From: an uncultured Clostridia bacterium
GTDB taxonomy: Bacteria; Bacillota; Clostridia; Christensenellales; CAG-917
Length of the DNA: 64,000 bases
Direction: 5' to 3'
NCBI GenBank assembly: GCA_934254835.1
Contig: CAKQMI010000001.1
Coordinates: 14,588-78,587 of the forward strand
Below, piece after piece: positions 6,167 through 50,936 of this stretch; position 1 is the stretch's first letter; each line of letters starts with the position of its first letter. The notes under the pieces were generated by a model, which saw only the letters and a program-made list of their open reading frames with translations, searched no databases and was not told the DNA's origin. Made by a program: the position numbers and the translations under genes.

Positions 6167-6306
6167 AAAATCGGCGATTCTATACACTCTAAAACGGCAG
6201 TCGCCATTTCTCTTTCTCCAAAATCGGCGATTTTATGCTCTCTAAAACGGCAGTCGCTACTTCTCTTTCTCCAAAATCGGCGATTTTATACTCTCTAAAA
6301 CGGCAG
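6167..6306. repeat. 53-bp tandem repeat, about 2.6 copies
   Basis: AAAATCGGCGATT..CTCTAAAACGGCAGTCGC..TTCTCTTTCTCC restarts at 6167, 6220 and 6273. The last copy merges into the hairpin unit. Confidence 0.85.
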
Positions 6307-6421
6307 AATTTTGATGAGATTACGGGGTTCTTGGCGGGTTCCGAAAAATCCAGTGTACTTTGCGTACACGATTTTTCGGGTTCTGCCAAAACGCCGTAAG
6401 GTCGCAAAATTATGCCGTTTT
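6297..6421 (-). repeat. 125-bp three-tier hairpin unit, copy A1
   Basis: Outer arms AAAACGGCAGAATTTTGAT / TCGCAAAATTATGCCGTTTT, middle stem TTGGC/GCCAA, apical hairpin GTGTAC-TTTGC-GTACAC. Read on the minus strand it begins 2 nt after the jag stop codon. Confidence 0.8.
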
Positions 6422-6423
6422 AA

Positions 6424-7236
6424 TTAAAAGTGTTTTTTGGTATAGCCAAAGGATTTAAACTTCGGCGGTCCGTTCTTCTTCAGATTAAACTCCGTTGCGG
6501 TGTCCTCGGCGGATTTCACGGCGGGGGCTTCGGTGCAATTTTCGCGACGTTCGCCGTTTCTTCCTCTGTTTCTGTCGTTGCGCCTGTTGTCGGGGCGTCT
6601 TCCGCCACGGTCGTTATCGTAGCCTTCGCGCACGCCTCCCTCTTTGGGGACGATGACGATATGACGATTCATATCCTCGCCCTCCGACTCGGTGGTGGCG
6701 AACTTGCTGTTTTGAAGCGCGGTGTGAATGACGCGACGCTCGAACGGGTTCATAGGTTCAAGCTCGACTTTTCTTCCGGTGCGGTACGCCTTGTAGGCAA
6801 GGCGGTTGGCAAGGGACTCAAGCGTTTCGACGCGTTTTTCGCGGTAGTTTTCGGCGTTGATGGACACGCGGATAAAGTTGTGTCCGCGCTCGTTCACGAG
6901 GATAAGCGCAAGATACTGAATGGCGTCCAGCACTTCCCCGCGATAGCCGATGATGACACCGCTGTCGCTTCCCGTGATATTGACGGTGATTTCCTCGTCG
7001 CTGACCTCGCAATCGGCGTAGCAACGAAGGTTCATTCTTTCAAAAAGCCCGTTCAAGAAATCGATGACGATGTCCGCGGGGGTTTCCTTGCGCGCCACGG
7101 TCACGACCGCTTTGCTGAAAATTCCGCCTTCTTGCAAAATCTCGATTTCGGCGTTATCTCTTTCGATGCCGAGCTCTTTCAAGCCTTCCTCGATTGCCTT
7201 TTCGACCGAGGACGCTTTGACTTCTATCTTTTCCAT
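6424..7236 (-). CDS. jag: Jag/KhpB RNA-binding protein (Jag_N-KH-R3H) with Arg/Gly/Asn-rich C-terminal extension
   Basis: 270 aa with R3H-type FERRVIHTAL. Position downstream of yidC is as in Bacillota. The tail reads DNDRGGRRPDNRRNDRNRGRNGERRE. Confidence 0.85.
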   Translation of the reverse strand: MEKIEVKASSVEKAIEEGLKELGIERDNAEIEILQEGGIFSKAVVTVARKETPADIVIDFLNGLFERMNLRCYADCEVSDEEITVNITGSDSGVIIGYRGEVLDAIQYLALILVNERGHNFIRVSINAENYREKRVETLESLANRLAYKAYRTGRKVELEPMNPFERRVIHTALQNSKFATTESEGEDMNRHIVIVPKEGGVREGYDNDRGGRRPDNRRNDRNRGRNGERRENCTEAPAVKSAEDTATEFNLKKNGPPKFKSFGYTKKHF

Positions 7237-7250
7237 AGGAGTTCTCCTTA

Positions 7251-8396
7251 TTATTTGAAGGTTGATTCCAGACGCTGTTCTTCGTGGCGTTTGTCGTTGA
7301 CCTTGACGCAGGCGTTGTAAATAAGCTGGAATACGGTGCTGAACAGGTTGCTTATTACCATATATACCGTGAACGCGGTGCTATATAAAAGCGCGAATAC
7401 CGCCAGCATTATGGGCATAAACCACTGCATCATCTTCATATTTGCCTGCATTGCGTTTTGCATATCTTTGCCGTTTCCGCCAGCCGTGGGGGGTTGAGGC
7501 GGTTGAGTTTGCTTCATAAGTTTTGTGGACGCAAAGGTGATAAGCCCGGTGATAATGGGCAACAACATAAAGCCGTTCCAACGACTTCCGCTCTTGCCGT
7601 TTCTCTTGACGTTGTTGTACTTTGCGATAAGCGGATCCATGACTTCTTCGTATTCGGTTTTATTTCCGTGCTCGATAGAAGCGGTGTCAATGCCGAGTTT
7701 GCCTATTCCGTTGCCGATGAAAGTTTCGTAGTTGGGGATAGGATTTTTCCAGCTGTCGGGCATAAACACGTTGTTTACCCACATAAATTTGATTTCGTTT
7801 TTGTACTTTTCTTCAAACTTTTTCAAGACATCGGCTTGTGCAAACGCGGTCGCTTTATCTTTTGCGATATTGCTTGCCGTGTCTTTTGCTTCCTGTTCGG
7901 ACTTGCCTTCGCCGATTAAACGGTTGTATTCCGCCGTGTTAATCGTCGATTTTTGCGCTTCGTACGTCGAAAAATACGTCGTGGAAAGGTCTTTGTACAT
8001 ATTCACGTTGTATTGCTTTACCATGCCGTTAAAGCCCGAAAAGACCATGAAGAATATGACAAGCGAGATTATCGAAGGAAGACAACTGCCAAGCATGCTG
8101 TACTTTTCCTTGCGGTAAAGTTCCATCTGCTTTTGCGAATAAAGTTCCTTATTTCCGGCGTATTGCTGTTGCAACTTCTCAAGTTGGGGCTTCATTCTCT
8201 CCATTGCGCGATTGTTCTTCGTCATGACAACTTTCTGCCATACGTCGAAGGGCGACATCGCCAGTTTTAAGATGAGAGTGAAGCATATTACAGCCACGCC
8301 GTAGTTACCGATGCCTTTGTTCAGAGCGTCGATAAGCCACATTACGCCTTCGGCAATTTTGTTCGCCGAAAGTCCCAGCTCCATTATACTAACCAT
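7251..8396 (-). CDS. yidC: Membrane protein insertase YidC/Oxa1 family
   Basis: 381 aa, multi-TM, in rnpA-yidD-yidC-jag synteny. ATG at 8396 has an AGGA RBS. An alternative ATG at 8384 forms a TAATG overlap with yidD. Confidence 0.85.
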   Translation of the reverse strand: MVSIMELGLSANKIAEGVMWLIDALNKGIGNYGVAVICFTLILKLAMSPFDVWQKVVMTKNNRAMERMKPQLEKLQQQYAGNKELYSQKQMELYRKEKYSMLGSCLPSIISLVIFFMVFSGFNGMVKQYNVNMYKDLSTTYFSTYEAQKSTINTAEYNRLIGEGKSEQEAKDTASNIAKDKATAFAQADVLKKFEEKYKNEIKFMWVNNVFMPDSWKNPIPNYETFIGNGIGKLGIDTASIEHGNKTEYEEVMDPLIAKYNNVKRNGKSGSRWNGFMLLPIITGLITFASTKLMKQTQPPQPPTAGGNGKDMQNAMQANMKMMQWFMPIMLAVFALLYSTAFTVYMVISNLFSTVFQLIYNACVKVNDKRHEEQRLESTFK

Positions 8397-8632: not shown

Positions 8633-8970
8633 TTGGAATGGCTCAAAAGTTCGGCCTTTTTGAGGAGCGACCTCATCGAATCGGCAATTTCGCTACTTTT
8701 CTTGCCGTAGACTGTGCTTCTCGCCACGAATATCAGATTGTGTCCTGGGGTTATCTCGGTTATCGCTTGGCGGACGCTCTCGCGCATCTGCCTCTTTACC
8801 CTGTTGCGCTGGACGCTTCCGCCGACTTTCTTAGAAACCGAAAATCCGACTTTCAACGCCCCTTTCGTCTTTACTACGTACAAAACGAAATCGTCGTTTG
8901 AAAAAACCGTGCCTTTCCTGTAAATGTAGTTGAAAGACGCGCGCTTTTTTAACTTATATTCCTTTTGCAT
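8629..8970 (-). CDS. rnpA: Ribonuclease P protein component
   Basis: 113 aa basic protein located between rpmH and yidD. Confidence 0.9.
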   Translation of the reverse strand: MQKEYKLKKRASFNYIYRKGTVFSNDDFVLYVVKTKGALKVGFSVSKKVGGSVQRNRVKRQMRESVRQAITEITPGHNLIFVARSTVYGKKSSEIADSMRSLLKKAELLSHSK

Positions 8971-8998
8971 CGGTGCGACGAGCCCTCAGCCCGCACAA

Positions 8999-9139
8999 TT
9001 AGTTGTGCGGGGCAAGTCTTGCTCTGCCTTTGTTGCGACGACGTTTCAATACGTTGCGTCCTTGCTTGGTTTGCATTCTTTTCCTGAAACCGTGTACCTT
9101 GGTTACGTGTCTTTTCTTGGGTTGGAATGTCCTTTTCAT
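8999..9139 (-). CDS. rpmH: 50S ribosomal protein L34
   Basis: [49 protein letters not shown] at 9139 follows AAGGAGG. The ORF-track start at 9193 is too far upstream. Confidence 0.95.
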
Positions 9140-9202
9140 ATATGCCTCCTTAATAGGGATTATTTCTTCACTATTGTTATTATAATATAACAATGCCAGT
9201 CA

Positions 9203-9231
9203 ATTATAAGTAAATTTCCCCTCGGTGTCAA
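9203..9231 (-). promoter_or_regulatory. Putative sigma-A promoter of rpmH operon
   Basis: On the minus strand, TTGACA (9231-9226), a 17-nt spacer, then TATAAT (9208-9203). Confidence 0.5.
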
Positions 9232-9587
9232 CCGATTTGACGACTTTAAGGAAATGACGGCGTTAAGTTTTTTTGTGTTTATTTGATATATAATCAGACC
9301 TTGCTTTTCGATTTTCGGTTTTTCTTGCGCCTTTCGTGCAAGCATTGTGAATGCCACCCGAGAATGTTTCCAACTGTCTTCGCCCGCGTTTTTGTCAAAA
9401 GCCTTGTTGCACTCTCGGCAAAAACGCAAAGTATTAGACCGTTCGCGCGCCAAGTTTTCGCCATAAACCGCACGGCAACGCTCTCTCAACCCGTTTCTTT
9501 TATGATTTTTGAAAAGACGAGTGCGGTTGATATTTTTGTACAAAATGACCTTATCAAAAAGCAAGAATATCAGCGTTTTAAAAAAAC

Positions 9588-9619
9588 AAACCGTACAAAG
9601 TACGGTTTAACCTTTTTTC
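9588..9619. terminator. Bidirectional intrinsic terminator
   Basis: Stem AAACCGTA / TACGGTTT with loop CAAAG. An A-run lies on the left and a T-run on the right. It sits downstream of the SdpI-like gene. Confidence 0.65.
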
Positions 9620-9708
9620 TTTCGAGTTTTGCCGATTCTTGCGTTTTCTCGATTTGCAAAACAACTCGGTTTTTGTCGTTTTTCGAAAACCTTACATTTG
9701 TATAGTTT

Positions 9709-10080
9709 TTAATCGGTTTGCTTTTTGTTTTTATTTTCACGTTTTCTTTTTACAAAAAGCCTCGCTTCGGTAATAATAATCGGCGCAAGAATATTCACAA
9801 TGACGCTTCCTACAAAATACCAAAATAAGTCGATTTTGATATTAAAACAGTATTTTGATATTATCAGAGCTATGCCAACAACCATTGATGTTATTGCCAA
9901 AATTATCATTACTTTTGGGGCAAATTTGTTTGCATATTTCCAGTATTCCTCGTTTATTGATGACCGCTTGGTACGATACCCGTACAAACTGTTCATCGGA
10001 GGCGTTTTAATAAGCAATATTATTGATGCCAATATGAGCGACAGTTGAATACCGAACGTATAAAAAAGATCTCTCCACAT
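9709..10080 (-). CDS. SdpI/YhfL-family membrane protein
   Basis: 123 aa with 3-4 TM helices and the family-like motif NSLYGYRTKRSSINEEYW. RBS AAGGAGGG. Confidence 0.6.
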   Translation of the reverse strand: MWRDLFYTFGIQLSLILASIILLIKTPPMNSLYGYRTKRSSINEEYWKYANKFAPKVMIILAITSMVVGIALIISKYCFNIKIDLFWYFVGSVIVNILAPIIITEARLFVKRKRENKNKKQTD

Positions 10081-10525
10081 AATCCCTCCTTTTGTCAGAA
10101 AAAAACCCCTCCGAAATTAACTTTGTCGCACTTTACTTCTGAAAAAGCAAATATTCCGCTTTTAATCTTTTGAGGCCTTGAATTTTTCCAAGCAGTAACT
10201 CTGAAACTAAAAATTAACAGGCAAAAAAATAAACAAAAGATTTTATTTATTAAATTATATCATCTACTCTCTCCATTGTCAATATTTGTTCTTTTTCCGG
10301 TTTTTTCCTAAATCGAGCAAACGGGTTTTTTCTCCCTCGTATATCGAACTGCTCCGCCAATAATCAAACCACAAATCTCGCCTTTTCTTTTCGTTTCTCG
10401 TTTTTGTTCACCCAACAGTAACCCTGTCCAAATAACTCTGTCACAGAATCTTAAACGTAGTTGCCCTTCAAAAAACCGTCGCAAAATCGTTGAACCTTGC
10501 GAAACCATTCTTCCCGACAGACTAT

Positions 10526-10541
10526 CGTTTCACGCGAAACA
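10526..10541. promoter_or_regulatory. parS-like site 1
   Basis: CGTTTCACGCGAAACA matches the Bacillota parS consensus TGTTNCACGTGAAACA at 14 of 16 positions. Confidence 0.5.
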
Positions 10542-10773
10542 ATGGCTTTTTGCGCGCAAAAACCATTTACTAAAATCAACAATACCGCGCCGTCACCCCT
10601 TGTCAATGAGCCTAATCGGAACACAACATGCTCCACATGCATTCAGTCACAAGGTAATCATGGCTACAAAACGGAAAACCGCCGAACCGTTCAACAACTC
10701 GAAAGAATAAACAATGTCTCCGCCAAAAGGAACTATCCTCATCAACAACTCGGATAAATTTGTCGGACAAACA

Positions 10774-10797
10774 ATGCCAACCGTGAATAATACGAAC
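10774..10797. repeat. Conserved 24-mer ATGCCAACCGTGAATAATACGAAC, copy X
   Basis: Identical to 11907-11930 and to the reverse complement of 12161-12184, while the flanks are strongly diverged. Confidence 0.9.
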
Positions 10798-11075
10798 TGT
10801 ACTAATCCGAAACAACCTCTCTTTTGCAGTCAGACAGAACGAAAATATTAAAAATTGACGCCCCGTAAGCACGGGCGCATAATTTAACAACTAAACCACC
10901 ATACCATGAACATTAAACACGCAAGCCGACATTCGCACCCGAAACAATCCGTAATATACTTTTTGCTTTATTATACAACTATTTGTGGCACCACAAACAT
11001 TGCACATCCACATTGCCAAACTCACCCGCAATAGTTTTGCTTAAACAAAGCATTTTCTCTTCCATTCTTGTCATT

Positions 11076-11096
11076 GCACGCGAGCGGGTTAATACT
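11076..11096. repeat. Conserved 21-mer GCACGCGAGCGGGTTAATACT, copy W
   Basis: Identical to the reverse complement of 11989-12009. About 65 nt of weaker similarity follows in both copies. Confidence 0.9.
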
Positions 11097-11906
11097 CTAT
11101 TCCTAAGCCATAAGCGCAACAACAACTTTGTCAAAAATACAACGTCGGATCTGCGTGACCAAATCGTCAATAATTTTGACTATTTTTGAAAAAAGCAACC
11201 ACCACTACACTTGTCGTACAGAGGCGAATTTTTGCAAAACACGGATATTGCGACAATTTGGCAATGTTCATATTATCCTTGTCCGATAATAAAAACCCTA
11301 TTGTTTTTGCCTAACGAAATTATCACAAATTAAAAACAGGAACGCTGTTAAAGCAAGCAACTAATTCACTGAGAGTTTTGAAAAAAGTCTCAAATCTTTC
11401 TTTCGGAACCCTTTTTAATTTGAAAACCAAATACGACGTTACAAATAACCGAAAATATTAACCGGTCGCACATGTTCTATTTATAAAAGCATTCCTAACC
11501 GCATAAAAAAGAAACCTCCAAAAACCCCGTCTATTTTGGTAATAACAAGCTAAAACACGGCTATAAATCTTTTGCGCCACACAACACAGGAAATAACAAG
11601 GAAAGTATTCTCGAAGTCACGATATAACCATACTCGCATAATATTCTGTCTCTCACCAACCAATGTGCCCAATTTTCCCGATCTTTGAAAATTCGCCACT
11701 TGAAACACAGTAACAAGCAATTAACAAAAACATAATAAACAAACATATAAACGTCACTCAAATCCGCCAAAACCACGCTGACAAATTAAAAATCGGACAA
11801 ATACAATGATATATCGTTTCAAGAAAAGGCCAAACAAGGGCAAAACCATTACAAAAACATCAAATTTATTCAACGGGGCACGAATTTGATTTTTTATTTT
11901 TATAAT

Positions 11907-12184
11907 ATGCCAACCGTGAATAATACGAACCGTGGTCTTGCTCCGTGTTTTTGACCAAAACCTCGTTGCGCTCACGGCTTATACATACAGTATTAACCCG
12001 CTCGCGTGCCTTGTTTTCGTCTAAAAACGCGGGGGCAATACTCCTTAGACCAAACCACCGAGAATTTCGATGATTTTTGGGAAAAATGAACGCAGTTGTA
12101 CTTTTGGTACTACAAGCGAGTTTTTGCAAAAAAGCACGGAAATATCGGCGATTTCTAACAGTTCGTATTATTCACGGTTGGCAT
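11907..12184. repeat. 278-bp inverted-repeat element with perfect 24-bp termini (MITE-like or long-hairpin locus)
   Basis: The termini at 11907-11930 and 12161-12184 are exact reverse complements. The subterminal ~90 nt of both halves are recognisably related (CAAAAACACGGA next to the 24-mer). No ORF and no obvious target-site duplication. Confidence 0.6.
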
Positions 12185-12474
12185 GCAACGGCTATTCAAA
12201 CGGCGAGAAAAACATAATAAACCAAAGAAACACCCGCTTTACTATATTTTTCTCGCTATTGCAACATAAACAAATTATCAAACACAACCAATCGAAAAAT
12301 AGAACGTAAACAAGATTTTCAAAAAGCACGTTGACAGGCAATTCTTTTTTTTCAATAATATGTTAAATATACATAAACCCTGTCAACATAAAACATTCTT
12401 TGAGGTCGATTATCTCAAATATGACGTTTCTATCCGTTGACATTATGTAGATTTTCTGGGAAAAGAGCAAAAAG

Positions 12475-12483
12475 ATATCCACA
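12475..12483. promoter_or_regulatory. DnaA box-like 9-mer (1 mismatch)
   Basis: ATATCCACA versus consensus TTATCCACA. Confidence 0.45.
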
Positions 12484-12497
12484 ATGTTACTATCGAA

Positions 12498-12513
12498 CGT
12501 TTCACGTGAAACA
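12498..12513. promoter_or_regulatory. parS-like site 2
   Basis: CGTTTCACGTGAAACA matches the parS consensus at 15 of 16 positions. Confidence 0.65.
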
Positions 12514-12564
12514 ACGATGATTTTACGCTATTTTTGCTTGTCTAAAAATTGTTCCGTTTTCATA

Positions 12565-12580
12565 TGTTTCACGCGGAACA
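12565..12580. promoter_or_regulatory. parS-like site 3
   Basis: TGTTTCACGCGGAACA matches TGTTTCACGTGGAACA at 15 of 16 positions. Confidence 0.65.
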
Positions 12581-12585
12581 AAAAG

Positions 12586-12594
12586 TTGTCCACA
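12586..12594. promoter_or_regulatory. DnaA box-like 9-mer (1 mismatch)
   Basis: TTGTCCACA, sandwiched between parS-like sites 3 and 4. Confidence 0.45.
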
Positions 12595-12596
12595 AT

Positions 12597-12612
12597 TGTT
12601 CCACGCGGAACA
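12597..12612. promoter_or_regulatory. parS-like site 4
   Basis: TGTTCCACGCGGAACA matches at 14 of 16 positions. Confidence 0.5.
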
Positions 12613-12736
12613 AAACGGTGCTTTTTGGCGGGTTTTTGGGCGTTTTTCCTTGGTTTTAAGCGGTTTATTGCGGTTTGTTTGCGGTGAATTACGGCATTTT
12701 CGTTTCTTTCTCCGTGTAAAATTGGCATACCGCTTT

Positions 12737-12745
12737 TGTGGATAA
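12737..12745. promoter_or_regulatory. DnaA box (perfect consensus, reverse orientation)
   Basis: TGTGGATAA is the reverse complement of TTATCCACA. Confidence 0.6.
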
Positions 12746-12829
12746 CTTTTGCTATTTTTTGGACAAGTATAATCATCGTGCTTTGTGGCAATAATATAAG
12801 CAATTTATTAAGGAAAATGGTGGTTTTTT

Positions 12830-12976
12830 ATGAAATGTACGTCGTGTAATGAGGCTTTTTCGCCTGATAAAATGTTTGTTTGTAAGTCTTGTGGCGCTTG
12901 TTTTTGTGAAAACTGTGTGAAAAACAACGATAATTCTTGTTTGAAATGCGGTACCGTGCTTGACAGATTTAACTAA
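12830..12976 (+). CDS. Hypothetical 48-aa Cys-rich (zinc-ribbon-like) small protein
   Basis: Own ORF, below the track size cutoff: MKCTSCNEAFSPDKMFVCKSCGACFCENCVKNNDNSCLKCGTVLDRFN, with four CxxC pairs. GGTGG lies 6 nt upstream. Caveat: the G/T-rich strand inflates TGT/TGC codons. Confidence 0.3.
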   Translation: MKCTSCNEAFSPDKMFVCKSCGACFCENCVKNNDNSCLKCGTVLDRFN

Positions 12977-13004
12977 ATGCGCAATTTTTGCCAGCAAAAA
13001 GGCG

Positions 13005-13020
13005 TGTTTCACGTAAAACA
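13005..13020. promoter_or_regulatory. parS-like site 5
   Basis: TGTTTCACGTAAAACA matches at 15 of 16 positions. Confidence 0.6.
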
Positions 13021-13530
13021 TTGTCGTTTTTTTTGCCTTGCTTTTTTATCGGTTTTTGGTTATTTTTTCAGCAAGAAATTATTTCTTTTAGGCTCAAAAT
13101 GGCTTTTTTTTGCATATAATCGGCGACATTTGGTTTGCAACTTGTCTGCTACTGCTACAACGTTATTTCTTTGTTTTCTTGCGGGTAAATAGGCTTATTC
13201 TTGCAACGAATTTGTCTTTGTGCGCGCACGGTGAATCGCATTGTTTTCGAAACGTTATTGTTTTTCAAAAGTTGTTGGCATAACTATTGGGTTTTTGTTA
13301 AAAACAAGAAGTTCTCTGGCTTTTATGGTTTATTTTATTTTGGGAGTATTACGCTTGTCCGCCATGGGTTTTGCGATTTTTTAACTGCGACGGATTCTCT
13401 TTATGAAATAGCTTGCTTTCAACTATTTGTTATGTTGATTGTTTTTCAAAACTTGTTATGTTCGGTTACTTTGTTTGCTATTTGTTCTTTCAATTATTTT
13501 CAAAAACGATAAGGTATTTGTGTTAATTCC

Positions 13531-13556
13531 AAATAAAAACCCCGCCGTCGGCGGAG
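13531..13556 (-). terminator. Intrinsic terminator downstream of luxS
   Basis: GC stem CCGCC-GTC-GGCGG followed on the minus strand by TTTTTATTT. Confidence 0.5.
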
Positions 13557-13580
13557 TAACCATTGTATATGCGCGGATAA

Positions 13581-14003
13581 TTATTTTATAAACGGAAGAA
13601 AAGCACGGATTTCGGCTTTTGCGCCGTCCAAGTCGTGATCGAGATAGTTTCCGCACTCGTGGCGTTTTGCGCCCGGAATTTCATTTATTTCAAGGCATTT
13701 TTCAAAGCACTCTTTCACGATAGGTTTGACTTCGTCGAGGGTGGTGTCAAACATAAGCAGATAAAACCCCGTGCGACAACCCATCGGTCCGAAATAAACA
13801 ACCTTTTCTTTGACCGCGCTGTTTCTGATGACGGTCGCAAAAATATGCTCGATTGTGTGTGCGGACGCTGTTGACAAAAAATCGCCCTCGTTCGGATTTT
13901 TGAAGCGTAGGTCGAAAGTGGAAATATTCCTTTCGGTGTTTGAAAGGAAAACCCCTTTTGAAAGCGTGTCGTGATTTACAAGAAATGACGTGACTGTTTC
14001 CAT
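13581..14003 (-). CDS. luxS: S-ribosylhomocysteine lyase LuxS
   Basis: 140 aa with the HTIEH metal motif and GCRTGFY. It lies adjacent to mtnN. Confidence 0.9.
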   Translation of the reverse strand: METVTSFLVNHDTLSKGVFLSNTERNISTFDLRFKNPNEGDFLSTASAHTIEHIFATVIRNSAVKEKVVYFGPMGCRTGFYLLMFDTTLDEVKPIVKECFEKCLEINEIPGAKRHECGNYLDHDLDGAKAEIRAFLPFIK

Positions 14004-17084: not shown

Positions 17085-17269
17085 GTTGCTTTCGCACGGC
17101 GGATTTTTGAAAATTTCGGAATTTCCCTATCCTAAAAAACCCTTTTTCGACTTATTTTTTGAATGTTCCACAAAAAAATAATGTTTCACAAATTTTTGTA
17201 AATCGTTGATTATTCGCCTCTTTAATGCTATACTTAAATAAAATAAAAACAAAATTAAGAGGTGTTTTT

Positions 17270-18154
17270 ATGTCAAACAAAGGTATTGGAAAAGGTCTTG
17301 CGGCGTTGCTCGGCAACATGCAGGAAGAAGAAGCGGTGGCGGAAAAACTCGATTCGACCGTCTCTCGCGAGATAATGAACGTCGATATTTCCCTTATCGA
17401 CACCAACCCTTATCAACCGCGAAAAATCTTTGACAAATCGGCACTTGAGGAGTTGGCGGCGTCCATAAAGTCGTTCGGCATTATTCAACCGCTGATCGTT
17501 TTGAGAAGCGGAAACCGTTACGTCATAATCGCGGGCGAAAGGCGTTTCCGTGCGGCGCGTCTTGCGGGATTGACGTCGGTACCTTGCGTCGTCAGGGAAC
17601 TCACCCCTCGTGAAATGCGAGAAATCGCCCTTATAGAAAACCTTCAGCGCGAGGATTTGAACCCCGTCGAGGCGGCAGAGGGCATAGCCGAACTTATAAA
17701 GTCTTACAACCTCACCCAAGAAGAAGCGGCGGAGCGTATCGGTATGGGCAGACCTACCGTCACGAATTTACTGCGTCTTTTATCGCTTGACAAAGAGGTG
17801 TTGGAACTTGTGCGCGCCGGCAGACTTTCGGGAAGTCATGCAAGGTGCTTGGTGGTTGTCACCGATCCCGAAGTGCAGGTTTATTACGCCAACAAAGCGT
17901 GCGACAACAAAATGTCCGTCAGAGATTTGGAACAACAAATCCAACTTTACCTCGGACGCAAACTTATCCCCGCGGGCGTCAGAAAAGAAAAACAATCGAA
18001 GGAACTCAAAACCTTTGTCAACGATATGAAACGCATCTTCGGCACAAAGGTCAAAATTTTGGGCAACGACGAAAAAGGTCGTATCTGCATCGATTATTTC
18101 TCCAACGACGATTTACAACGTATTTATGACTTAATCGATAGTTTACGCCACTGA
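17270..18154 (+). CDS. parB: ParB/Spo0J (or Noc) family partition protein
   Basis: ATG at 17270 follows AAGAGGTG. It shows GKGLAALLG, NPYQPRK, ParB box IIAGERRFRAA and an HTH. No parA/soj gene is adjacent. Confidence 0.9.
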   Translation: MSNKGIGKGLAALLGNMQEEEAVAEKLDSTVSREIMNVDISLIDTNPYQPRKIFDKSALEELAASIKSFGIIQPLIVLRSGNRYVIIAGERRFRAARLAGLTSVPCVVRELTPREMREIALIENLQREDLNPVEAAEGIAELIKSYNLTQEEAAERIGMGRPTVTNLLRLLSLDKEVLELVRAGRLSGSHARCLVVVTDPEVQVYYANKACDNKMSVRDLEQQIQLYLGRKLIPAGVRKEKQSKELKTFVNDMKRIFGTKVKILGNDEKGRICIDYFSNDDLQRIYDLIDSLRH

Positions 18155-18738: not shown

Positions 18739-19848
18739 TTAGTTTATAATGCGCACGGGCAAAATAAGGTAAAGATATTCGTCCGCTTTCTTTTCAGTGG
18801 GGACGATGACGCCGGGCGCGGTGGACGTCGTAAAGCAAAGTTTGACAAAGTCGTCGCTTATCGCGCGGAGGCTGTCCGAAAGGTATCTTGCGTTAAATCC
18901 GATGTTAAGGTCGTGTCCCAAAAGGTCGATTGCGACGATTTCGTTGATCCCGCTGATTTCGCTCTCGGCGGAAATGGACATTTTCTTTTCGCGGATTTCA
19001 AGTTTTACGACGCTCTTCTTTTCGGTGCGGGTTGCAAGCGACGCACGGTCGATTGCGGTGTCAAACGCCTTTTTATCGACAAACACGGTCGTTGTGAAGT
19101 CGGTGGGAATAATCTTGTTGTAGTTGATATATTCGCCCTCGATAAGCCTTGTGACGATTTTGGTATTGCCGAGGTCAACCATAAAGTAGTTTTTCTCGAT
19201 ACTGACTTTTACGTTTTCGTCGCTGTCGTCAAGAAGTTTTGAAATTTCGCTCATACTTCTTGCGGGGACGATAATTTTTATATCCGCTCCGCCGTACTCG
19301 ATTTCCTTTTTGCAATAAGCAAGGCGATATCCGTCCGACGCGACGCCTATAATCTTATTGTCCGAAATTTCGATACTGCAACCTTTGAGGGTGGGGCGAT
19401 TGTCTTCGTTTGCCGTGCAGAAAATAATTTTTTCGATAAGGTTTTTTAGTTCCTTTTTTACGATATAAAAAGAATTTTCGTCGTTGACGTTTTTGAACAC
19501 GGGGTACTCGTCGGCTTCCATCGTCTGGATATAACCGCTGTTTTCGCCGTATGTAAGCTTAAGCGTTGTTTCGTTCGTCGTGTCGATAATGACGTCTTCC
19601 TTATCGATTTTTCGGACGTATTCGGTAAAGTACTTTCCGAGAATAACCGTTTCGCCGTCGATGAAGATATCGGCGTTGATTTTTTTCTCGATCGAAAGTT
19701 CCAAATCGGTTGCGGTGAGTGTCAACGTATTGTTTTCCGCCTTAAGTTTTATGCCGTTAAGAATGGGCATAACTTTCTTAAGAGGAAGCGCTTTCCCGAC
19801 CTGTGTTAATGCATCGGATAATTCAAGGCTGTCGCAAGAGAGTTTCAT
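18739..19848 (-). CDS. dnaN: DNA polymerase III beta sliding clamp
   Basis: 369 aa, three-domain clamp-like sequence immediately downstream of dnaA. Confidence 0.95.
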   Translation of the reverse strand: MKLSCDSLELSDALTQVGKALPLKKVMPILNGIKLKAENNTLTLTATDLELSIEKKINADIFIDGETVILGKYFTEYVRKIDKEDVIIDTTNETTLKLTYGENSGYIQTMEADEYPVFKNVNDENSFYIVKKELKNLIEKIIFCTANEDNRPTLKGCSIEISDNKIIGVASDGYRLAYCKKEIEYGGADIKIIVPARSMSEISKLLDDSDENVKVSIEKNYFMVDLGNTKIVTRLIEGEYINYNKIIPTDFTTTVFVDKKAFDTAIDRASLATRTEKKSVVKLEIREKKMSISAESEISGINEIVAIDLLGHDLNIGFNARYLSDSLRAISDDFVKLCFTTSTAPGVIVPTEKKADEYLYLILPVRIIN

Positions 19849-20040
19849 CGGTTTCTCCTTATATTTATATTGTTTTATATTTCTTTGATAATGATTTTGT
19901 TAATAAGGCTTGTGGAAAAGTTGAAGTTGAACGTTTCGCACAAAATATAGACAAAACCAAAATTTAAGAGACAATATAGTGTGGTTTTTAATGTTAATAA
20001 CTTTGTTTACAACTTTTTTTAATTATAAACATATCTACAA

Positions 20041-21408
20041 TCAGCGTTTATATAACATGTCTTTTATGTCGTTGATTTGTATTTTCAGTTTTTGAGCAGA
20101 CGCGTTATTGGACGAAAGGGCGTCGGTGATTTTATCGCGCGAGTGAATAATAGTCGCGTGGTCGCGCCCGCCGAAAATACTGCCGATTGACACGAGAGGC
20201 ACCGACAACATATCGCAAATAAGATAAATAGCGACCATTCTCGGCTCGACAAATTCCTTGTTTTTCTTTTTGCCGATGACGTCGTTTTCGGACACGCCGA
20301 AGTATTTGCACGTCGTTGAAAGAACGTCGTAGGCGTCGAAATGCTCCTTTTTAGTCTCGATATACCCGGAGAGCGCCTCTTTCGCAATGGCAAGCGACGC
20401 GGGTTGACCTGAAAGTTGAGTGTAAAACATAACTTTGTTCAAAAGCCCTTCGAGGTCGCGGATATTGTTTTCCATATTACTTGCGATAAAAGACGCGACT
20501 TCGTCCGACAAAAAGAAGTTTTCGGCGTCGGCTTTCTTTTTCAAAATCGCGATTCTCGTTTCGATGTCGGGCGGTTGAATGTCGGCAAGCAGTCCCCACT
20601 GGAAACGCGTCCTCAGCCTTTCTTCAAGCGGGGCGATTTCCTTTGGCGGACGGTCGGACGAGATGATGATGTGTTTGTCGTTTTGATAAAGGTCGTTGAA
20701 GGTGTGGAACAACGCTTCTTGCGTGCCTTGTTTTGAGGCGATAAACTGAATATCGTCAATCATCAAAACGTCGACAGAGCGGTATTTTTCACGGAAAGCA
20801 ACGCTGGTTTTGGAGTCTCTGATAGACTCGACATAGTCGGCGATATACTTGTCCGTCGTGATGTACATAATGCGTTTTTTAGGAAATTTTGCGTTGATAT
20901 AATTTCCTATCGCGTGCATAAGGTGAGTTTTTCCAAGCCCGACACCGCCGTAAATAAACAGGGGATTGAAGCGTCCGCCGGGGTGCTCGGACACGGCTTG
21001 CGCGGCGGCAAAAGCAATCTCGTTGGACTTCCCGACGACAAAGTTGGAAAAGGTATATTTTTTATTGAAAGAAAACCCGGTGTCGTCGGCTTTTTCAACC
21101 TTTTTCACGACAAGTTCGTCACCCAAAGTATAGTCTTGTTGTTTCAAGCAGTCGGCTTTTTCCGACTCGATAATAATCTTGACGTCGGAGATAATTGGGT
21201 TGACTTCTTTCACCGCTTCCAAGATGGTGTCGCGGTAATTTTTGACGATGGTGTTTTTGCTACTTTGACTGCCCGATTGCAGTACGAGAGTGTGACCGAT
21301 AAAACATATCGGTTCCAACTTTTCAATCCAGACCTCATAGCTTATCGCCTGCAGTCTTGCGGACAATTTAATTTTGGTGTCGTTCCAAAGGGTATTGATG
21401 TCGATCAT
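20041..21408 (-). CDS. dnaA: Chromosomal replication initiator DnaA
   Basis: 455 aa with Walker A GGVGLGKTHL, box VII, and the C-terminal DNA-binding motif GGRDHATIIHS. Confidence 0.97.
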   Translation of the reverse strand: MIDINTLWNDTKIKLSARLQAISYEVWIEKLEPICFIGHTLVLQSGSQSSKNTIVKNYRDTILEAVKEVNPIISDVKIIIESEKADCLKQQDYTLGDELVVKKVEKADDTGFSFNKKYTFSNFVVGKSNEIAFAAAQAVSEHPGGRFNPLFIYGGVGLGKTHLMHAIGNYINAKFPKKRIMYITTDKYIADYVESIRDSKTSVAFREKYRSVDVLMIDDIQFIASKQGTQEALFHTFNDLYQNDKHIIISSDRPPKEIAPLEERLRTRFQWGLLADIQPPDIETRIAILKKKADAENFFLSDEVASFIASNMENNIRDLEGLLNKVMFYTQLSGQPASLAIAKEALSGYIETKKEHFDAYDVLSTTCKYFGVSENDVIGKKKNKEFVEPRMVAIYLICDMLSVPLVSIGSIFGGRDHATIIHSRDKITDALSSNNASAQKLKIQINDIKDMLYKR

Positions 21409-21504
21409 AATAATTATATGATACCATTATTAATCAAAAAAAACAAACAAAATGATAGTATAATATAAAAATAAGAAAGATTTATTTATAAGAAAAAACC
21501 GCCG

Positions 21505-22608
21505 TTATTTCAGCGGTTTTTCAGTGATTGTGCCGTTCTTCACACAATAGAGTTTTGACAAATTCAGGGGTTTAACATCAAATTCCGTACATGTAATCAC
21601 CGTTTGCGTGCGGTTGGCAAGTTCGATGAGTTTTTCGCGACGAGCAACGTCCAGCTCGCTCAAAACGTCGTCCAAAAGTAAAATCGGGGCTTCGCCCGTT
21701 TCGTTTTTGAAAAGCGACAACTCGGCAATTTTTATTGAAAGCGACACGCTTCTTTGTTGTCCTTGCGACGCAAATTTTCTGGCATCCACGTCGTTCAAAA
21801 CGATTTTTATATCGTCGCGGTGAGGTCCTTGCGTGGTGTACATAAGGGCGCGGTCGCGCTCCACCGACGACGAAAATGCCGATAAAAGATTGTTGAATAT
21901 TTCGTCGTAAGTTTCGCCTTTTATCGAACATTCGTAGTTAAGCGACAGTGTTTCTTTGCCGTCGGAAAGCTCGAAGTGAGAGTCCTTTGCGAGGGTTGAA
22001 AGTTTTTTGACGTAGTTTTTTCTGGCAAGTATCAAATTCGCGCCGACTTCCGCCATTCCGGCGTCCCAAATGGAAAGCAAAGACGGCAGATTTTCGTTGC
22101 GGTTTTCGTTTTTCAAAAGGGTGTTGCGCTGTTGCAAAATCTTGTTGTATTTTGCAAGGGATTTGAAGTAAGTTTTCGATTGTTGCGACAATGAAATGTC
22201 CAAAAAACGCCGTCTTTCGTCGGGGCCCGCCTTGACAAATCGCATTTCGTCGGGCGAAAAATAAACGACGTTGACGATGCCGATAAGTTCCGACAGCCTT
22301 TTCACGGGCAAATTGTCGATTTTTATTTTTTTCGCGCCTTTGTTTTCGATGACGAGCTCGATGACGTGCGTGCGGTATTTTTTGGCGATTTCCGCCTTGA
22401 TATAAGCGCGCTCCATAGAAAAGGAAATAAGCTCCTTTTCACGGCTTGTACGGGGGGATTTTCCGAGTCCCAACAAATAAATCGCCTCAAGCATATTCGT
22501 TTTTCCGCTCGCGTTTTCGCCCGACAGCACGTTGATGCCTTGCCCGAACGTAACGGACGCCGACGAATAGTTTCTGAAATTTTTGAGTTGAAGCGACTTG
22601 ATAAACAT
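21505..22608 (-). CDS. recF: DNA replication and repair protein RecF
   Basis: The start MFIKSLQLKNFRNY is at 22608. It shows Walker A GENASGKTN, signature SQGQQRS and Walker B LLLDDV. Confidence 0.93.
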   Translation of the reverse strand: MFIKSLQLKNFRNYSSASVTFGQGINVLSGENASGKTNMLEAIYLLGLGKSPRTSREKELISFSMERAYIKAEIAKKYRTHVIELVIENKGAKKIKIDNLPVKRLSELIGIVNVVYFSPDEMRFVKAGPDERRRFLDISLSQQSKTYFKSLAKYNKILQQRNTLLKNENRNENLPSLLSIWDAGMAEVGANLILARKNYVKKLSTLAKDSHFELSDGKETLSLNYECSIKGETYDEIFNNLLSAFSSSVERDRALMYTTQGPHRDDIKIVLNDVDARKFASQGQQRSVSLSIKIAELSLFKNETGEAPILLLDDVLSELDVARREKLIELANRTQTVITCTEFDVKPLNLSKLYCVKNGTITEKPLK

Positions 22609-22897
22609 ACGATTATTATACCATAACAAAAAATAAAGTAAAAGGAATTGAGAAAATTTACCTCAAAACAAAAAATAAAACGAAAAACCCGCTGTGCAGG
22701 GCATACAAGCGCACAAAAAAATGACCGTACAAGTCCACGGAGATTAAAAAACCGCCGTCGTAGCCCCCAAAATCCCCCTGAAAAGGACAAATTATTAAAA
22801 ATTAGCAAAAAACGGTTTGCATATTATTGATAATATGTTATACTTAATGTACTTATTATTTTATGCGTGCGCACGCATAGCGTACGCGAGAGGGATT

Positions 22898-30042: not shown

Positions 30043-31314
30043 ATGGCAGATTTTGACTTCAAAGTCGCATCCGAAAGTATGATGGACTTTATCAAAAAAG
30101 TCGAGACAGAAATCGGTCCGCGTCTTCCCGGCTCCGACGAGGAACGCGCCGGCGCAAAACTCATCAAAGAAGAGTATGAAAAAAACATTGGTATTAAGCC
30201 CGTGTCCGAACCGTTCAAGGTTGCCCCCGAAAGCGGAATCGGCTCGATTCCTTATATCGGTATCGGCGGACTTATCGCACTCATCGGCTTTTTCATTTAT
30301 CCGATAGTAGGCGCGGTTATCGCGGTGCTTTGCTTCCTGTACTTTGCGGTTATGGGCGGATTTTACACCCAGATTTTCGACTTCCTGTGGAAAAAGAAAG
30401 ACACCGAAAACTTCTATACCGTGCAAGAGCCGTTGTCGGGCAAGGTTGACTACACAATCGTATTGTCGGCGCACTACGACAGCAGTTGGAACTGGAATCT
30501 TGCAAAGAAAAACCCCAAAACCTTCATTCCGAAAATCGTATACGGCGTCGTGGGACTCCTTTCGATTTTGGTGTTCGGTTTCGTGTTGCAATTCGCGGAT
30601 AAAGGGGCGTACGCTCAGCCCTTGTGGACAAACGCCGCTTCAATCACTACTTGGAAATGGTACGTCTATCTCGGCTATATCCTGCCCATCGTCTGCATAC
30701 CGGGGCTTTACTATATCACGCAATTCTTGTCGCACGACAAAACCATCGCGTCCCCCGGCTGTATGGACAACCTCACGGGCATCGGCTTGAACCAAGAAAT
30801 CGCAAAACACTTCAACCGTCACCCCGAAGATTTGCCCGAAAACTGCCGTCTTATCTGCGCCGCTATGGCGTGTGAGGAGTCCGGACTTCGTGGCGCACGC
30901 GCTTTCGTCAAACTCCACAAGGACGACGGTATGCTCAAAAATTGCTATCAAATCAACGTCGACAGTATCTCGGACGAGGACTACTTCGAGGTCATTCAAG
31001 GCGACGCAATTCAAATGTGCAAATTCGATATGGAACTGGGCGATATGCTTTACGAATCCTTGCAGGAACTCGGTCTTGTCAAAAAGACAGGCAGAATTTG
31101 GAACCCCGTCGGCGGTTGCGACAGCACCCCGTTCTGCCGTGCAGGCGTGAAAACAATCACCTTCGCCGCGCAAAACCCCATCGCCACCGACTACTACCAC
31201 ACTTCCAACGATAAGTCGGATCGCTTAAAGACCAGCGTGTTCGAGGGAGGCATCGAGGCGGTGTATAGGACTATTAAGAAAATCGGCGCAAAAGAAGACG
31301 CGAAACGTCAATAA
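30043..31314 (+). CDS. M28-family peptidase-like membrane protein
   Basis: ATG at 30043 follows GGAGG. It has internal TM helices, SAHYDS and CEESGLRGA motifs, and a paralog at 43448..44761. Confidence 0.65.
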   Translation: MADFDFKVASESMMDFIKKVETEIGPRLPGSDEERAGAKLIKEEYEKNIGIKPVSEPFKVAPESGIGSIPYIGIGGLIALIGFFIYPIVGAVIAVLCFLYFAVMGGFYTQIFDFLWKKKDTENFYTVQEPLSGKVDYTIVLSAHYDSSWNWNLAKKNPKTFIPKIVYGVVGLLSILVFGFVLQFADKGAYAQPLWTNAASITTWKWYVYLGYILPIVCIPGLYYITQFLSHDKTIASPGCMDNLTGIGLNQEIAKHFNRHPEDLPENCRLICAAMACEESGLRGARAFVKLHKDDGMLKNCYQINVDSISDEDYFEVIQGDAIQMCKFDMELGDMLYESLQELGLVKKTGRIWNPVGGCDSTPFCRAGVKTITFAAQNPIATDYYHTSNDKSDRLKTSVFEGGIEAVYRTIKKIGAKEDAKRQ

Positions 31315-31427
31315 TTTGCGATCTTTTGAGTTTTTTCGAGAACCTGAAAATCCGTGTACGCAATAGTACACTAGGATTTTCAGAACCCCGAAAGAAACGT
31401 CAAAACCTCATCAAATTCTTGACGTTT
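31303..31427 (+). repeat. 125-bp three-tier hairpin unit, copy D1
   Basis: Arms AAACGTCAATAATTTGCGAT / ATCAAATTCTTGACGTTT, apical hairpin CTGAAAATCC-GTGTAC-GCAATA-GTACAC-TAGGATTTTCAG. Its first 12 nt encode the last three codons and the TAA stop of the upstream gene. Confidence 0.85.
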
Positions 31428-37352: not shown

Positions 37353-37924
37353 CCTATCACGTTAGAAAATACAAAGACGAGGATCGCGACGCCGTAAGGA
37401 AGATTTGTCACCTCACGGCAACCGCGCCCGCCTACGTCAAAAATCCCGAACTTGTCGCAACGCTTTACGCCGATTATTACATCGAGTTCGAGCCCGACGG
37501 CATTTTCGTTTTGGCGCGCGACGAGGACGACGTGGCGGTCGGCTATATCCTGTCGAGCCTTGACTACAAATCATTTTTGAAAACTTTCAATAAGTACTTT
37601 ATGCCACGGGTAAGGAAACTTTCAAGGCTTGAAGCGTTCACGCACTTTTTCGCTTTCCGCCAAAGTCTTTATATGGACGCGAAAAAATACCCCGCGCACC
37701 TGCATATCGACATTTTGCCCGGGGCGCAACACCAAGGATACGGCGCGAAACTTATGGACGCACTCATGGACTACCTCTTTGAAAAGGGCGTGAAAGGCGT
37801 GCATCTGGGCGTCGGCGCGGACAACGCGGGCGCAATCAGGTTTTACGAGAAGTATGGGTTTACGATGATACACAACTTTAAATCTTTTGGCAAAGTCTTC
37901 GCCAAAACAATAAAACGGCGATAA
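37349..37924 (+). CDS. GNAT-family N-acetyltransferase
   Basis: 191 aa with an acetyl-CoA motif region QHQGYGAKLMDAL and AIRFYEKYGF. An ATGA overlap links it to the upstream gene. Confidence 0.8.
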   Translation: MTYHVRKYKDEDRDAVRKICHLTATAPAYVKNPELVATLYADYYIEFEPDGIFVLARDEDDVAVGYILSSLDYKSFLKTFNKYFMPRVRKLSRLEAFTHFFAFRQSLYMDAKKYPAHLHIDILPGAQHQGYGAKLMDALMDYLFEKGVKGVHLGVGADNAGAIRFYEKYGFTMIHNFKSFGKVFAKTIKRR

Positions 37925-38035
37925 TTTGCGATATTCTGCTTTTTCGGCGGAACCCCGCTCGGTTACGTACGTCAGTACGCGCCCTCGCGAGAACCCGCCG
38001 AGAAAAACACAATCTCATCAAATTCTCGCCGTTTT
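37912..38035 (+). repeat. 124-bp three-tier hairpin unit, copy E1
   Basis: Its outer 43 nt and 45 nt are identical to copy F1 (50812-50936), but the apical hairpin differs (ACGTAC-GTCA-GTACGC core). Its first 13 nt encode K-R-R and the TAA stop of the GNAT gene. Confidence 0.9.
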
Positions 38036-38080
38036 ATAGGGAAAGAATTATCTCATCAAAATTCTGACTTTTTAGAGGCA

Positions 38081-50806: not shown

Positions 50807-50811
50807 AACGT

Positions 50812-50936
50812 AAAACGGCGATAATTTGCGATATTCTGCTTTTTCGGCGGAACCTGAAAAATCGTGTACGGTCAGTACACTGGATTTTTCAGAACCCGCC
50901 GAGAAAAACACAATCTCATCAAATTCTCGCCGTTTT
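50812..50936 (+). repeat. 125-bp three-tier hairpin unit, copy F1
   Basis: Starts 6 nt after the ktrA stop. The outer arms are identical to E1. The apical hairpin is CTGAAAAATC-GTGTAC-GGTCA-GTACAC-TGGATTTTTCAG. Confidence 0.9.

Follow-up and report, generated by a model that had tools for sequence, protein, structure and literature searches.

In Firmicutes, the unwinding element of the replication origin is usually found in the dnaA–dnaN spacer, with another cluster of DnaA boxes upstream of dnaA beside rpmH. Here we analysed a stretch of 64,000 nucleotides from an uncultured Clostridia bacterium (contig CAKQMI010000001.1; the whole stretch is called the window), in which rpmH (8999–9133, minus strand) and luxS (13581–14003, minus strand) are separated by a gene-poor interval of 4.4 kb (window positions 9194–13580). 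The interval is probably an origin-associated mosaic, made up of a conserved core of DnaA boxes and parS-like sites, ordinary gene furniture, copies of a structured repeat that we call U, and about 2 kb of drifting spacer. Most of it is ordinary, and constraint on sequence is confined to the 0.64-kb core, a pair of small genes and the usual promoters and terminators. The claim of a first-pass annotation that there is almost no coding capacity between rpmH and luxS holds, as the coding share is about 12% (an SdpI gene and a gene for a 48-aa zinc-ribbon protein).

Comparison with the rpmH–dnaA–dnaN origin regions of Firmicutes revealed both likenesses and differences. Like them, the interval adjoins rpmH and contains TTATCCACA-type DnaA boxes, TGTTNCACGTGAAACA-type parS sites, an AT-rich tract and a switch in skew, with parB and rsmG nearby. 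Unlike them, it is separated from dnaA–dnaN, which lies 7 kb off in inverted orientation, by luxS, mtnN, an MFS transporter gene, rsmG and parB; its DnaA boxes are directly interleaved with parS-like sites; and its core is flanked by gene-free spacers of 0.5–2 kb with extreme strand asymmetry.

The closest described analogue of U is bcr1, a repeat of the Bacillus cereus group that is transcribed and non-autonomous and adopts a cruciform-like structure, whose two stem-loops are kept by compensatory changes (PMC3184786). Like bcr1 and the Correia (nemis) elements of Neisseria (PMC3184786), U is small, non-coding, bounded by terminal inverted repeats, intergenic, variable between strains and stably folded. 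In contrast to bcr1, which is about 155 nt long and makes 5-bp duplications, U measures 277–282 nt, lacks flanking direct repeats and has no known cognate transposase; its hosts are Clostridia of gut and rumen that have not been cultured, and species differ in the interior of the element but hardly at all in its 24-nt ends. U also resembles the REPINs, REP doublets mobilised by RAYT, an IS200/IS605-like Y1 enzyme (PMC3184786, PMC3733652), in that inverted ~25-mers flank a less conserved spacer, a hairpin can form, target duplications are lacking and an ends-only form exists (locus L012, 2232–2286). However, the spacer of U is about 230 nt long and itself structured, compared with tens of nucleotides in REPINs; its ends, which read ATGCC.../ATACC... 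in every copy, carry neither a GTAG nor a CGTC tag; none of the loci examined showed a RAYT gene bounded by U ends; and its copy numbers appear low. With the msr-msd non-coding RNA (ncRNA) of retrons, U shares a length in the range of 150–300 nt and terminal inverted repeats that close a fold with separate hairpins, but no reverse transcriptase gene adjoins U in any locus, U is multi-copy and dispersed, and different species have kept the sequence of its terminal helix.

A conserved DnaA-box and parS core

Orthologous intervals were located through RnpA homologues in three further lineages, comprising loci L074–L081 (also L058–L061) with at least 90% RnpA identity, L066 with 70% and L062–L065 with 65%. 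All lineages share the unusual synteny dnaN ... parB-rsmG-MFS-mtnN-luxS-(interval)-rpmH (the dnaN-to-rpmH part in L062 and L074–L081). Within the interval, only the rpmH promoter, as far as 9247–9259, and positions 12390–13031 could be aligned with relatives, apart from the U copies of L058 and L074 and a 30-nt match to the hairpin of the SdpI terminator in L058–L060. The block at 12390–13031, which we refer to as the core, is 73% identical to the L074 clade over 654 nt. It contains three DnaA boxes with at most one mismatch, at 12475–12483 and 12586–12594 on the plus strand and at 12737–12745 on the minus strand, which form the densest cluster of such near-perfect boxes in the window (three within 270 bp, 12475–12745). 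Four parS-like sites lie in the same block (12498–12513, 12565–12580, 12597–12612 and 13005–13020), and a 15-nt motif, CTTTCTCCGTGTAAA, at 12706–12720 separates the parS/DnaA-box block from the last DnaA box. Six genomes show no or almost no variation in the DnaA boxes, the parS-like sites at 12498–12612 and the 15-mer, and the parS-like site at 13005 is kept in the L074 clade, whose members are the sole relatives aligned there. The exact 15-mer is present in 16 origin loci (L001–L004, L062–L065 and L074–L081) and as a variant in L066, and it matches no binding-site consensus that we could name.

A search for parS-like sites, defined as 16-bp palindromes near TGTTTCACGTGAAACA with at most three mismatches, found five in the 64-kb window, where 0.62 are expected, and all five are in the interval. 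The fifth is an outlying site, CGTTTCACGCGAAACA, at 10526–10541 with two mismatches, and the DNA around it is not alignable with relatives. These counts, together with the DnaA-box cluster, bear out the origin-type signals reported in the first-pass annotation. The protein-binding platform that it had offered as one possible function is likewise right for the core at 12.39–13.03 kb, where DnaA boxes and parS sites are conserved in relatives.

Judged by consensus and conservation, the core would be bound by DnaA and ParB and would mark the start of outward replication, so that replication and the loading of ParB and SMC would both proceed outward from it. A parB-like gene is located at 17225–18154, and rsmG is also near. 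At about 12.4 kb, the cumulative minimum within the window, GC skew and AT skew both reverse their sign, as they also do at the homologous site of L062, L074 and L077. In addition, the small genes inside the interval all face outward from the core. This orientation and the local switch in skew speak for firing at the core or close to it without proving it; the skew switch is no proof of firing because the signal is local. Next to the core, a stretch at 12330–12387 with up to 82% A+T contains a palindrome, GTTGACAGG...CCTGTCAAC, and the promoter scan placed two divergent promoter-like sites in it, scoring 11/12 and 10/12; judged by AT content, the AT-rich tract spans 12340–12400. As this part lies just outside the block that can be aligned with relatives, we regard it as a candidate unwinding or promoter region.

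Several observations weigh against firing at the core. dnaA–dnaN is 7 kb (dnaA 7.3 kb) away and inverted relative to the usual arrangement, and the AT-rich spacer between dnaA and dnaN (19849–20040) holds five weak DnaA boxes. The unwinding origin may therefore be situated in the dnaA–dnaN spacer, in which case the core would be just an auxiliary cluster of DnaA boxes and parS sites. The core may also correspond to the second DnaA-box cluster of Firmicutes, split from dnaA by rearrangement. In the same region of the window (18739–22629), recF is positioned directly upstream of dnaA with a gap of 96 nt.

U, a structured repeat with near-invariant ends

The first-pass annotation had pointed to perfectly conserved short motifs in the interval, and these are real: the exact 24-mer ATGCCAACCGTGAATAATACGAAC occurs three times, compared with none expected in 100 shuffles, and the matches extend to 27 nt. 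Self-comparison revealed that these 24–27-mers are the terminal inverted repeats of a non-coding structured repeat of about 278 nt, which is U. One intact 278-nt copy, U2, is located at 11907–12184 on the minus strand; it is bounded by 24–27-nt terminal inverted repeats, its 27-nt arms are complementary at 26 of 27 positions (96%), and it scores 297.7 bits with the U covariance model. The U1 copy (9351–9596, minus strand) is decayed, as shown by an nhmmer match over model positions 31–279 (E = 1.8e-24), a covariance model score of 56 bits (E = 1e-14) and 66.5% blastn identity over 248 nt to 11907–12154; it lacks a recognisable 5' terminal repeat and underlies a spurious 134-aa open reading frame (ORF). 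U3 (11036–11288, minus strand), found by blastn, is both decayed and rearranged, with a covariance model score of 49 bits and nhmmer matches on the minus strand (E = 3.8e-18) and the plus strand (E = 3.1e-10), and it contains a 65-nt segment of arm 2 (11076–11140) that is inverted relative to U2. A solo terminal repeat at 10774–10802 on the plus strand is identical to the U2 end over 27 nt. The suggestion of decayed mobile DNA in the earlier annotation was thus right for about 0.8 kb, namely these U copies, one intact and several decayed. The presence of one intact and three decayed or solo copies indicates that landing and decay of U are tolerated in this region.

A degenerate pattern of the U end was found in 12 stretches from five GTDB genomes, including a hairpin-only form in L012, and in 41 metagenome stretches. 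The hosts are all uncultured Clostridia from gut, rumen and reindeer samples, plus the mislabelled 'Acidiphilium sp. CAG:727'. Full-length units always measure 277–282 nt (28 instances, 15 distinct sequences). Their interiors are 62–77% identical between lineages, while the ends are almost invariant, and GAATAATACGAAC within the ends is nearly fixed, with single-base variants. U homologues carry stops in all six frames. Two ORFs in the interval, of 134 aa (9160–9564, minus strand) and 87 aa (11866–12129, minus strand), had been considered as protein paralogues on account of the shared motifs ARERxNT and KNHRN; this candidate was rejected, neither ORF has a Pfam match, and both are spurious because homologous U units elsewhere have stops in every frame. 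No Rfam family matched anywhere in the window at gathering thresholds, U2 gave no Rfam match at E values up to 5, and a permissive Rfam search of the interval returned four chance matches outside U2. A text search of the literature for the U sequence found no paper. U is a structured repeat of gut and rumen Clostridia that resembles miniature inverted-repeat transposable elements (MITEs), matches no Rfam family and is decaying in the window.

Some further observations concern U and its surroundings. In the scaffold labelled Acidiphilium sp. CAG:727 (L016, positions 1–60), a U end lies 12 nt from the ribosome-binding site (RBS) of a divergent sigG/sigF-like sigma factor gene. Just outside the U2 end of the window (12203–12256) there is a 19-bp inverted repeat with a 16-nt loop, which attracted spurious weak Rfam matches (rox2, mir-1954). 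U is also carried by human faecal records in GenBank labelled 'UNVERIFIED: Bacteriophage sp.' (MT835522.1, our L082; MT835718.1, our L083; and five similar records); in the first two its surroundings comprise gltX, degV, glgB, glgC and a gene for a SipL-domain protein, and both are bacterial chromosomal contigs, not phages. A second repeat family of about 126 nt occurs in the window at 6290–6430, 31303–31427, 37911–38036 and 50811–50936, with neighbours at 29.5, 38.3–38.8 and 51.2–51.6 kb. Its members are bounded by the inverted sequences AAAACGGCG...CGCCGTTTT, have a GTGTACG...CAGTACAC hairpin in the middle and are 77–95% identical to copies in gut-metagenome contigs that also carry U. Since the U covariance model matches the ~126-nt copies weakly over its first arm (E = 0.004–0.05), U may be a composite that contains a module related to these repeats.

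The predicted fold of U2 is far more stable than that of shuffled sequences, with a minimum free energy of −115.5 kcal/mol (z = −9.1) on the minus strand and −105.6 kcal/mol (z = −7.0) on the plus strand. RNAalifold, run on 4 and then on 15 units, returned a Y-shaped fold in which a 24-bp terminal helix closes two independent hairpin arms. Across the 15 distinct units, standard pairs are formed in 96.2% of cells, and 36 of the 80 pairs have changed on both sides in a compensatory manner. The covariation score was 0.295 compared with 0.131 in column shuffles, none of 500 shuffles reached it, and sliding the partner columns reduced pairing to 34–41%. Because compensatory changes preserve the fold, it matters in a single-stranded state, either RNA or single-stranded DNA. 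G-U pairs outnumber A-C mismatches by 64 to 21, or by 27 to 13 with one sequence per lineage, and this excess weakly favours the minus strand of the window as the folded strand of U2, in a test that is biased because the structure was predicted on the same strand and in which the excess by lineage is modest.

The distribution of U copies is that of a dispersed element. In the metagenome-assembled genome (MAG) CAMOXE01, at least eight contigs end in U, and four of these ends (L005, L007, L011 and L015) are the same over the part compared. An identical unit is present at two unrelated loci in one gut species, solo ends exist, and a derivative in L012 consists of two ends only, 7 nt apart (2232–2286). 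L074 and L058 carry U in their rpmH–luxS interval, but L077 and L080, with the same RnpA protein, have none there. U shares with MITEs the inverted ends, the short core, the lack of an ORF, and dispersed copies with presence and absence among strains. We class U as an element that works like a structured MITE, with incomplete membership, as target duplication is not seen and no cognate transposase is known. U would be a non-autonomous element moved in trans by an enzyme that recognises its conserved ends, and the lack of target duplications argues against classical DDE cut-and-paste.

Copies near the origin may also serve as substrates of recombination. The same-species contigs L002 and L004 break inside U2. 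L001 has an identical luxS and matches the window at 99.9% identity over 12 kb, then departs inside the outer half of the 3' end of U2, where its positions 12060–12100 (corresponding to window 11907–11935) continue into unrelated hypA-side DNA. The unit in L001 is chimeric, with an outer 3' end from a different U subtype, and the junction is either a product of recombination between dispersed U copies or an assembly chimera. Since assemblies break at U and L001 joins different DNA there, U gives rise to misassembly and possibly to real rearrangements beside the origin. In another species, loci L067 and L068 have identical RnpA and wholly different genes upstream of rpmH (~8900–10000; Metallophos... 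and Lipase_GDSL..., respectively), which suggests that strain-level rearrangement breakpoints occur at the origin-proximal side of rpmH there too.

Not all of the evidence favours mobility. By eye, no target-site duplication of 3 bp or more and no common target were found at about 15 distinct insertion sites, and no transposase with the same ends as U was found among the roughly 80 loci examined. In several loci U is co-oriented with its neighbours, in contexts that vary: 14 nt after a stop codon and before a terminator (L017-type), between operon genes upstream of rimM (L013), or in a 5' leader (L047). The compensated fold and the co-orientation fit a selected RNA function as well as they fit mobility, and we consider it an unlikely alternative that U is a new family of large, functional structured ncRNA genes of gut and rumen Clostridia, whose copies are gene duplicates and whose terminal helix is a site of protein binding or processing. 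Such a family would account for the strong covariation over 15 units, the strict length of 277–282 nt, the excess of G-U over A-C on one strand, the co-orientation with flanking genes in the three kinds of loci just named, and the retention of the fold while the interior diverges to 62–75% identity. It accounts poorly for the lack of a conserved promoter or terminator of its own and the different contexts among loci, for at least eight contig breaks at U in one MAG and the identical unit at two unrelated loci, or for the solo ends, the ends-only derivative, the presence and absence between strains and the decayed copies in the window, and Rfam contains no match. Moreover, the helix is conserved in sequence beyond what pairing needs, which suggests that the ends are recognised as double strands. 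TTGGCA occurs in the ends with no consistent −10 element after it, and no outward-facing promoter was seen (by eye only). The reading as a MITE-like element is preferred, and it is conceivable that U is a domesticated structured RNA with a cellular function.

Skewed spacers around the core

After removal of U copies, promoters and genes, the spacer amounted to about 1.5 kb toward rpmH and 0.5 kb toward luxS. The rpmH-side spacer (10283–11906, U pieces excluded) is G/T-rich with 13% C on the minus strand, and the luxS-side spacer (13032–13538) has 45% T and 14% C on the plus strand and includes a short 20-nt repeat present three times; the sequence of neither is conserved. The skew profile confirmed the strongly skewed composition that had been described earlier as A/C-rich and T-rich stretches. 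GC skew on the plus strand is −0.16 to −0.39 at ~10.05–11.85 kb and turns positive from ~12.45 kb (+0.08 to +0.27 over ~12.45–13.6 kb). In the remaining intergenic DNA of the window, the absolute GC skew is 0.08 or less, with one exception, a 320-nt gap at −0.15. The GC content of the spacer is below that of its flanks.

No alignment of the spacers could be made with the corresponding interval in congeners, although the flanking genes of these are 78–92% identical, nor with L062 or L066. They fold no better than shuffles on either strand (sliding windows, z near 0), have no relevant Rfam matches at gathering or permissive thresholds, contain only trivial tandem repeats and show no decayed domains in a six-frame Pfam search, and no convincing enriched k-mers were common to the window spacer and the L066 spacer. 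Within the L074–L081 clade, by contrast with the deeper comparisons, the spacer aligns at 73–97% identity with indels, so it evolves by ordinary drift of substitutions and indels. Composition is nevertheless reproduced where sequence is not: on the strand that points outward from the core, C makes up 13% and G 21–25% of the rpmH-side spacer in the window, the L074 clade and L066, and the luxS-side spacer has 14–15% C and 43–46% T in the window and the L074 clade. The spacers are most likely drifting DNA shaped by strand-asymmetric mutation. On this model, C-to-T changes would accumulate on the outward strand when it is exposed during outward replication, outward transcription or both, giving an asymmetry that flips at the core. 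Neutral skew from fourfold-degenerate sites was uninformative because a preference for C-ending codons dominates.

Two points count against a purely mutational origin of the asymmetry. The rest of the window's intergenic DNA is not skewed to a similar degree, and a neutral model does not predict that 1.5–2 kb should stay gene-free with the same composition in three lineages of a compact genome; drift alone accounts neither for this retention nor for the amplitude of the asymmetry. It is conceivable, if rather doubtful, that selection acts on the length and composition of the spacer, not on its sequence, to maintain an 'origin buffer zone' round the DnaA-box/parS core. If so, transcripts running toward the core would be C-rich, G-poor, unstructured and rut-like and would form a trap for Rho, the free DNA would offer an unobstructed platform for the loading and spreading of ParB and SMC, and the zone would explain why three lineages keep 1.5–2 kb of unalignable DNA at 13% C while other intergenic DNA is unskewed.

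Explanations that assign the stretches a sequence-specific role or a coding past fare worse. The first-pass annotation had inferred function, with ncRNA genes among the options, for the A/C-rich and T-rich stretches, and the idea that these 2.2 kb and 0.55 kb encode ncRNAs or protein-binding arrays draws on their being gene-free yet retained, on an excess of promoter-like sites (25 compared with 12.5 in shuffles) and on the composition reproduced across lineages. However, the stretches are conserved neither with congeners nor with L062 or L066, fold like shuffles (z near 0), lack Rfam matches and decayed Pfam domains, share no k-mer motif with the L066 spacer and have no notable tandem repeats, which makes such a role improbable; the annotation itself had named lack of conservation, together with lack of any transcription, as what would speak against function, and by the first of these the stretches behave as spacer. 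Equally, it had left room for decayed genes. Relatives do carry intact genes in the same interval, TfoX_N in L074–L081, TfoX_N, GrpB and DUF3795 in L062, and DUF3795 in L066, and in L080 a TfoX_N-like gene is split into ORFs of 33 and 69 aa (7546–7860), probably a fresh pseudogene that illustrates gene turnover in the interval. That the window interval is a pseudogenised remnant of such genes is nonetheless very improbable, since tblastn of the TfoX_N, GrpB and DUF3795 proteins against the window yielded nothing below E = 0.35. The six-frame Pfam scan finds SdpI only, and the G/T-rich composition with T above A is unlike the sense strands of the genes of this genome. An origin of the spacer in a prophage, a plasmid or some other large element that had integrated could be suspected from the GC content, lower than in the flanks, and from the U-like matches in the seven 'Bacteriophage sp.' records, but these records are unverified and the two inspected carry the housekeeping bacterial genes listed above. 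The U motif has no match in IMG/VR, U2 has no plasmid match, blastn of the spacer finds no plasmid or phage match beyond the U3 segment, and there are no integrase or phage domains and no tRNA, which leaves this origin of the spacer close to negligible in probability. Drifting spacer under strand-asymmetric mutation thus remains the preferred reading.

Ordinary genes, signals and meaning of the interval

The interval is flanked on the minus strand, up to position 9133, by mnmG, mnmE, jag, yidC, yidD, rnpA and rpmH, and beyond its other end by luxS and mtnN (minus strand), the MFS transporter gene, rsmG and the parB-like gene (plus), dnaN, dnaA and recF (minus) and gyrB and gyrA (plus). The leader and promoter of rpmH (9134–9259, minus strand) include a TTGACA-17-TATAAT promoter at 9231–9203 that scored 12/12 in the promoter scan, and the leader is 81–92% conserved up to 9241–9259 in all related loci that cover the region (the short L061 reaches 9217). 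The six-frame Pfam scan of the whole interval supported only the ORF at 9709–10080 (minus strand), a gene for a 123-aa membrane protein of the SdpI/YfhL family (PF13630, E = 1.2e-13). This gene is accessory, as it is absent from L062, L066 and L074–L081. A promoter-like site at 10254–10282 on the minus strand (TTGACA-17-TGnTATAAT, 12/12, with an extended −10) may serve it, as a consensus match alone, and an intrinsic terminator follows at 9587–9609 (minus strand), where the terminator scan found a 10-bp stem and a T run in a bidirectional hairpin that is kept in L058–L060 in the 30-nt match mentioned above. The luxS terminator at 13539–13557 (minus strand) has an 8-bp stem with six GC pairs before its T run. 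No tRNA or tmRNA was found in a search of the DNA.

The second small gene, at 12830–12976 on the plus strand, encodes a 48-aa protein with a double CxxC zinc ribbon. The ORF comes with an RBS and is unbroken in L074, L077 and L080. Compared with each of these three loci, it shows 16–17 synonymous and 7–8 nonsynonymous codon differences, and base differences by codon position of 7/1–2/21–22, so that third positions account for 21–22 of about 30. Pfam zinc-finger matches are weak, and the gene is absent from L062 and L066. The codon pattern argues that this ORF is a real gene under purifying selection in the closest clade. Its position inside the DnaA-box/parS core, beside the origin sites, is worth recording. 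The earlier annotation had recognised one convincing gene and dismissed the other ORFs of the interval; the SdpI gene is indeed confirmed by Pfam and the 134-aa and 87-aa ORFs are rightly dismissed, but the conserved 48-aa ORF with its RBS had to be added to the genes. For annotation in general, gene callers place spurious ORFs of 80–134 aa on repeat copies and miss the real 48-aa gene.

None of these findings overturns current understanding. At an origin, the reproducible asymmetry of the spacers is a clean natural record of how mutation is biased between strands, or of how selection acts on composition. With U, the poorly known gut and rumen Clostridia gain a structured MITE-like family, and its combination of near-invariant ends, a compensated fold and no target duplication may point to a non-DDE mode of mobilisation or to a role as RNA.

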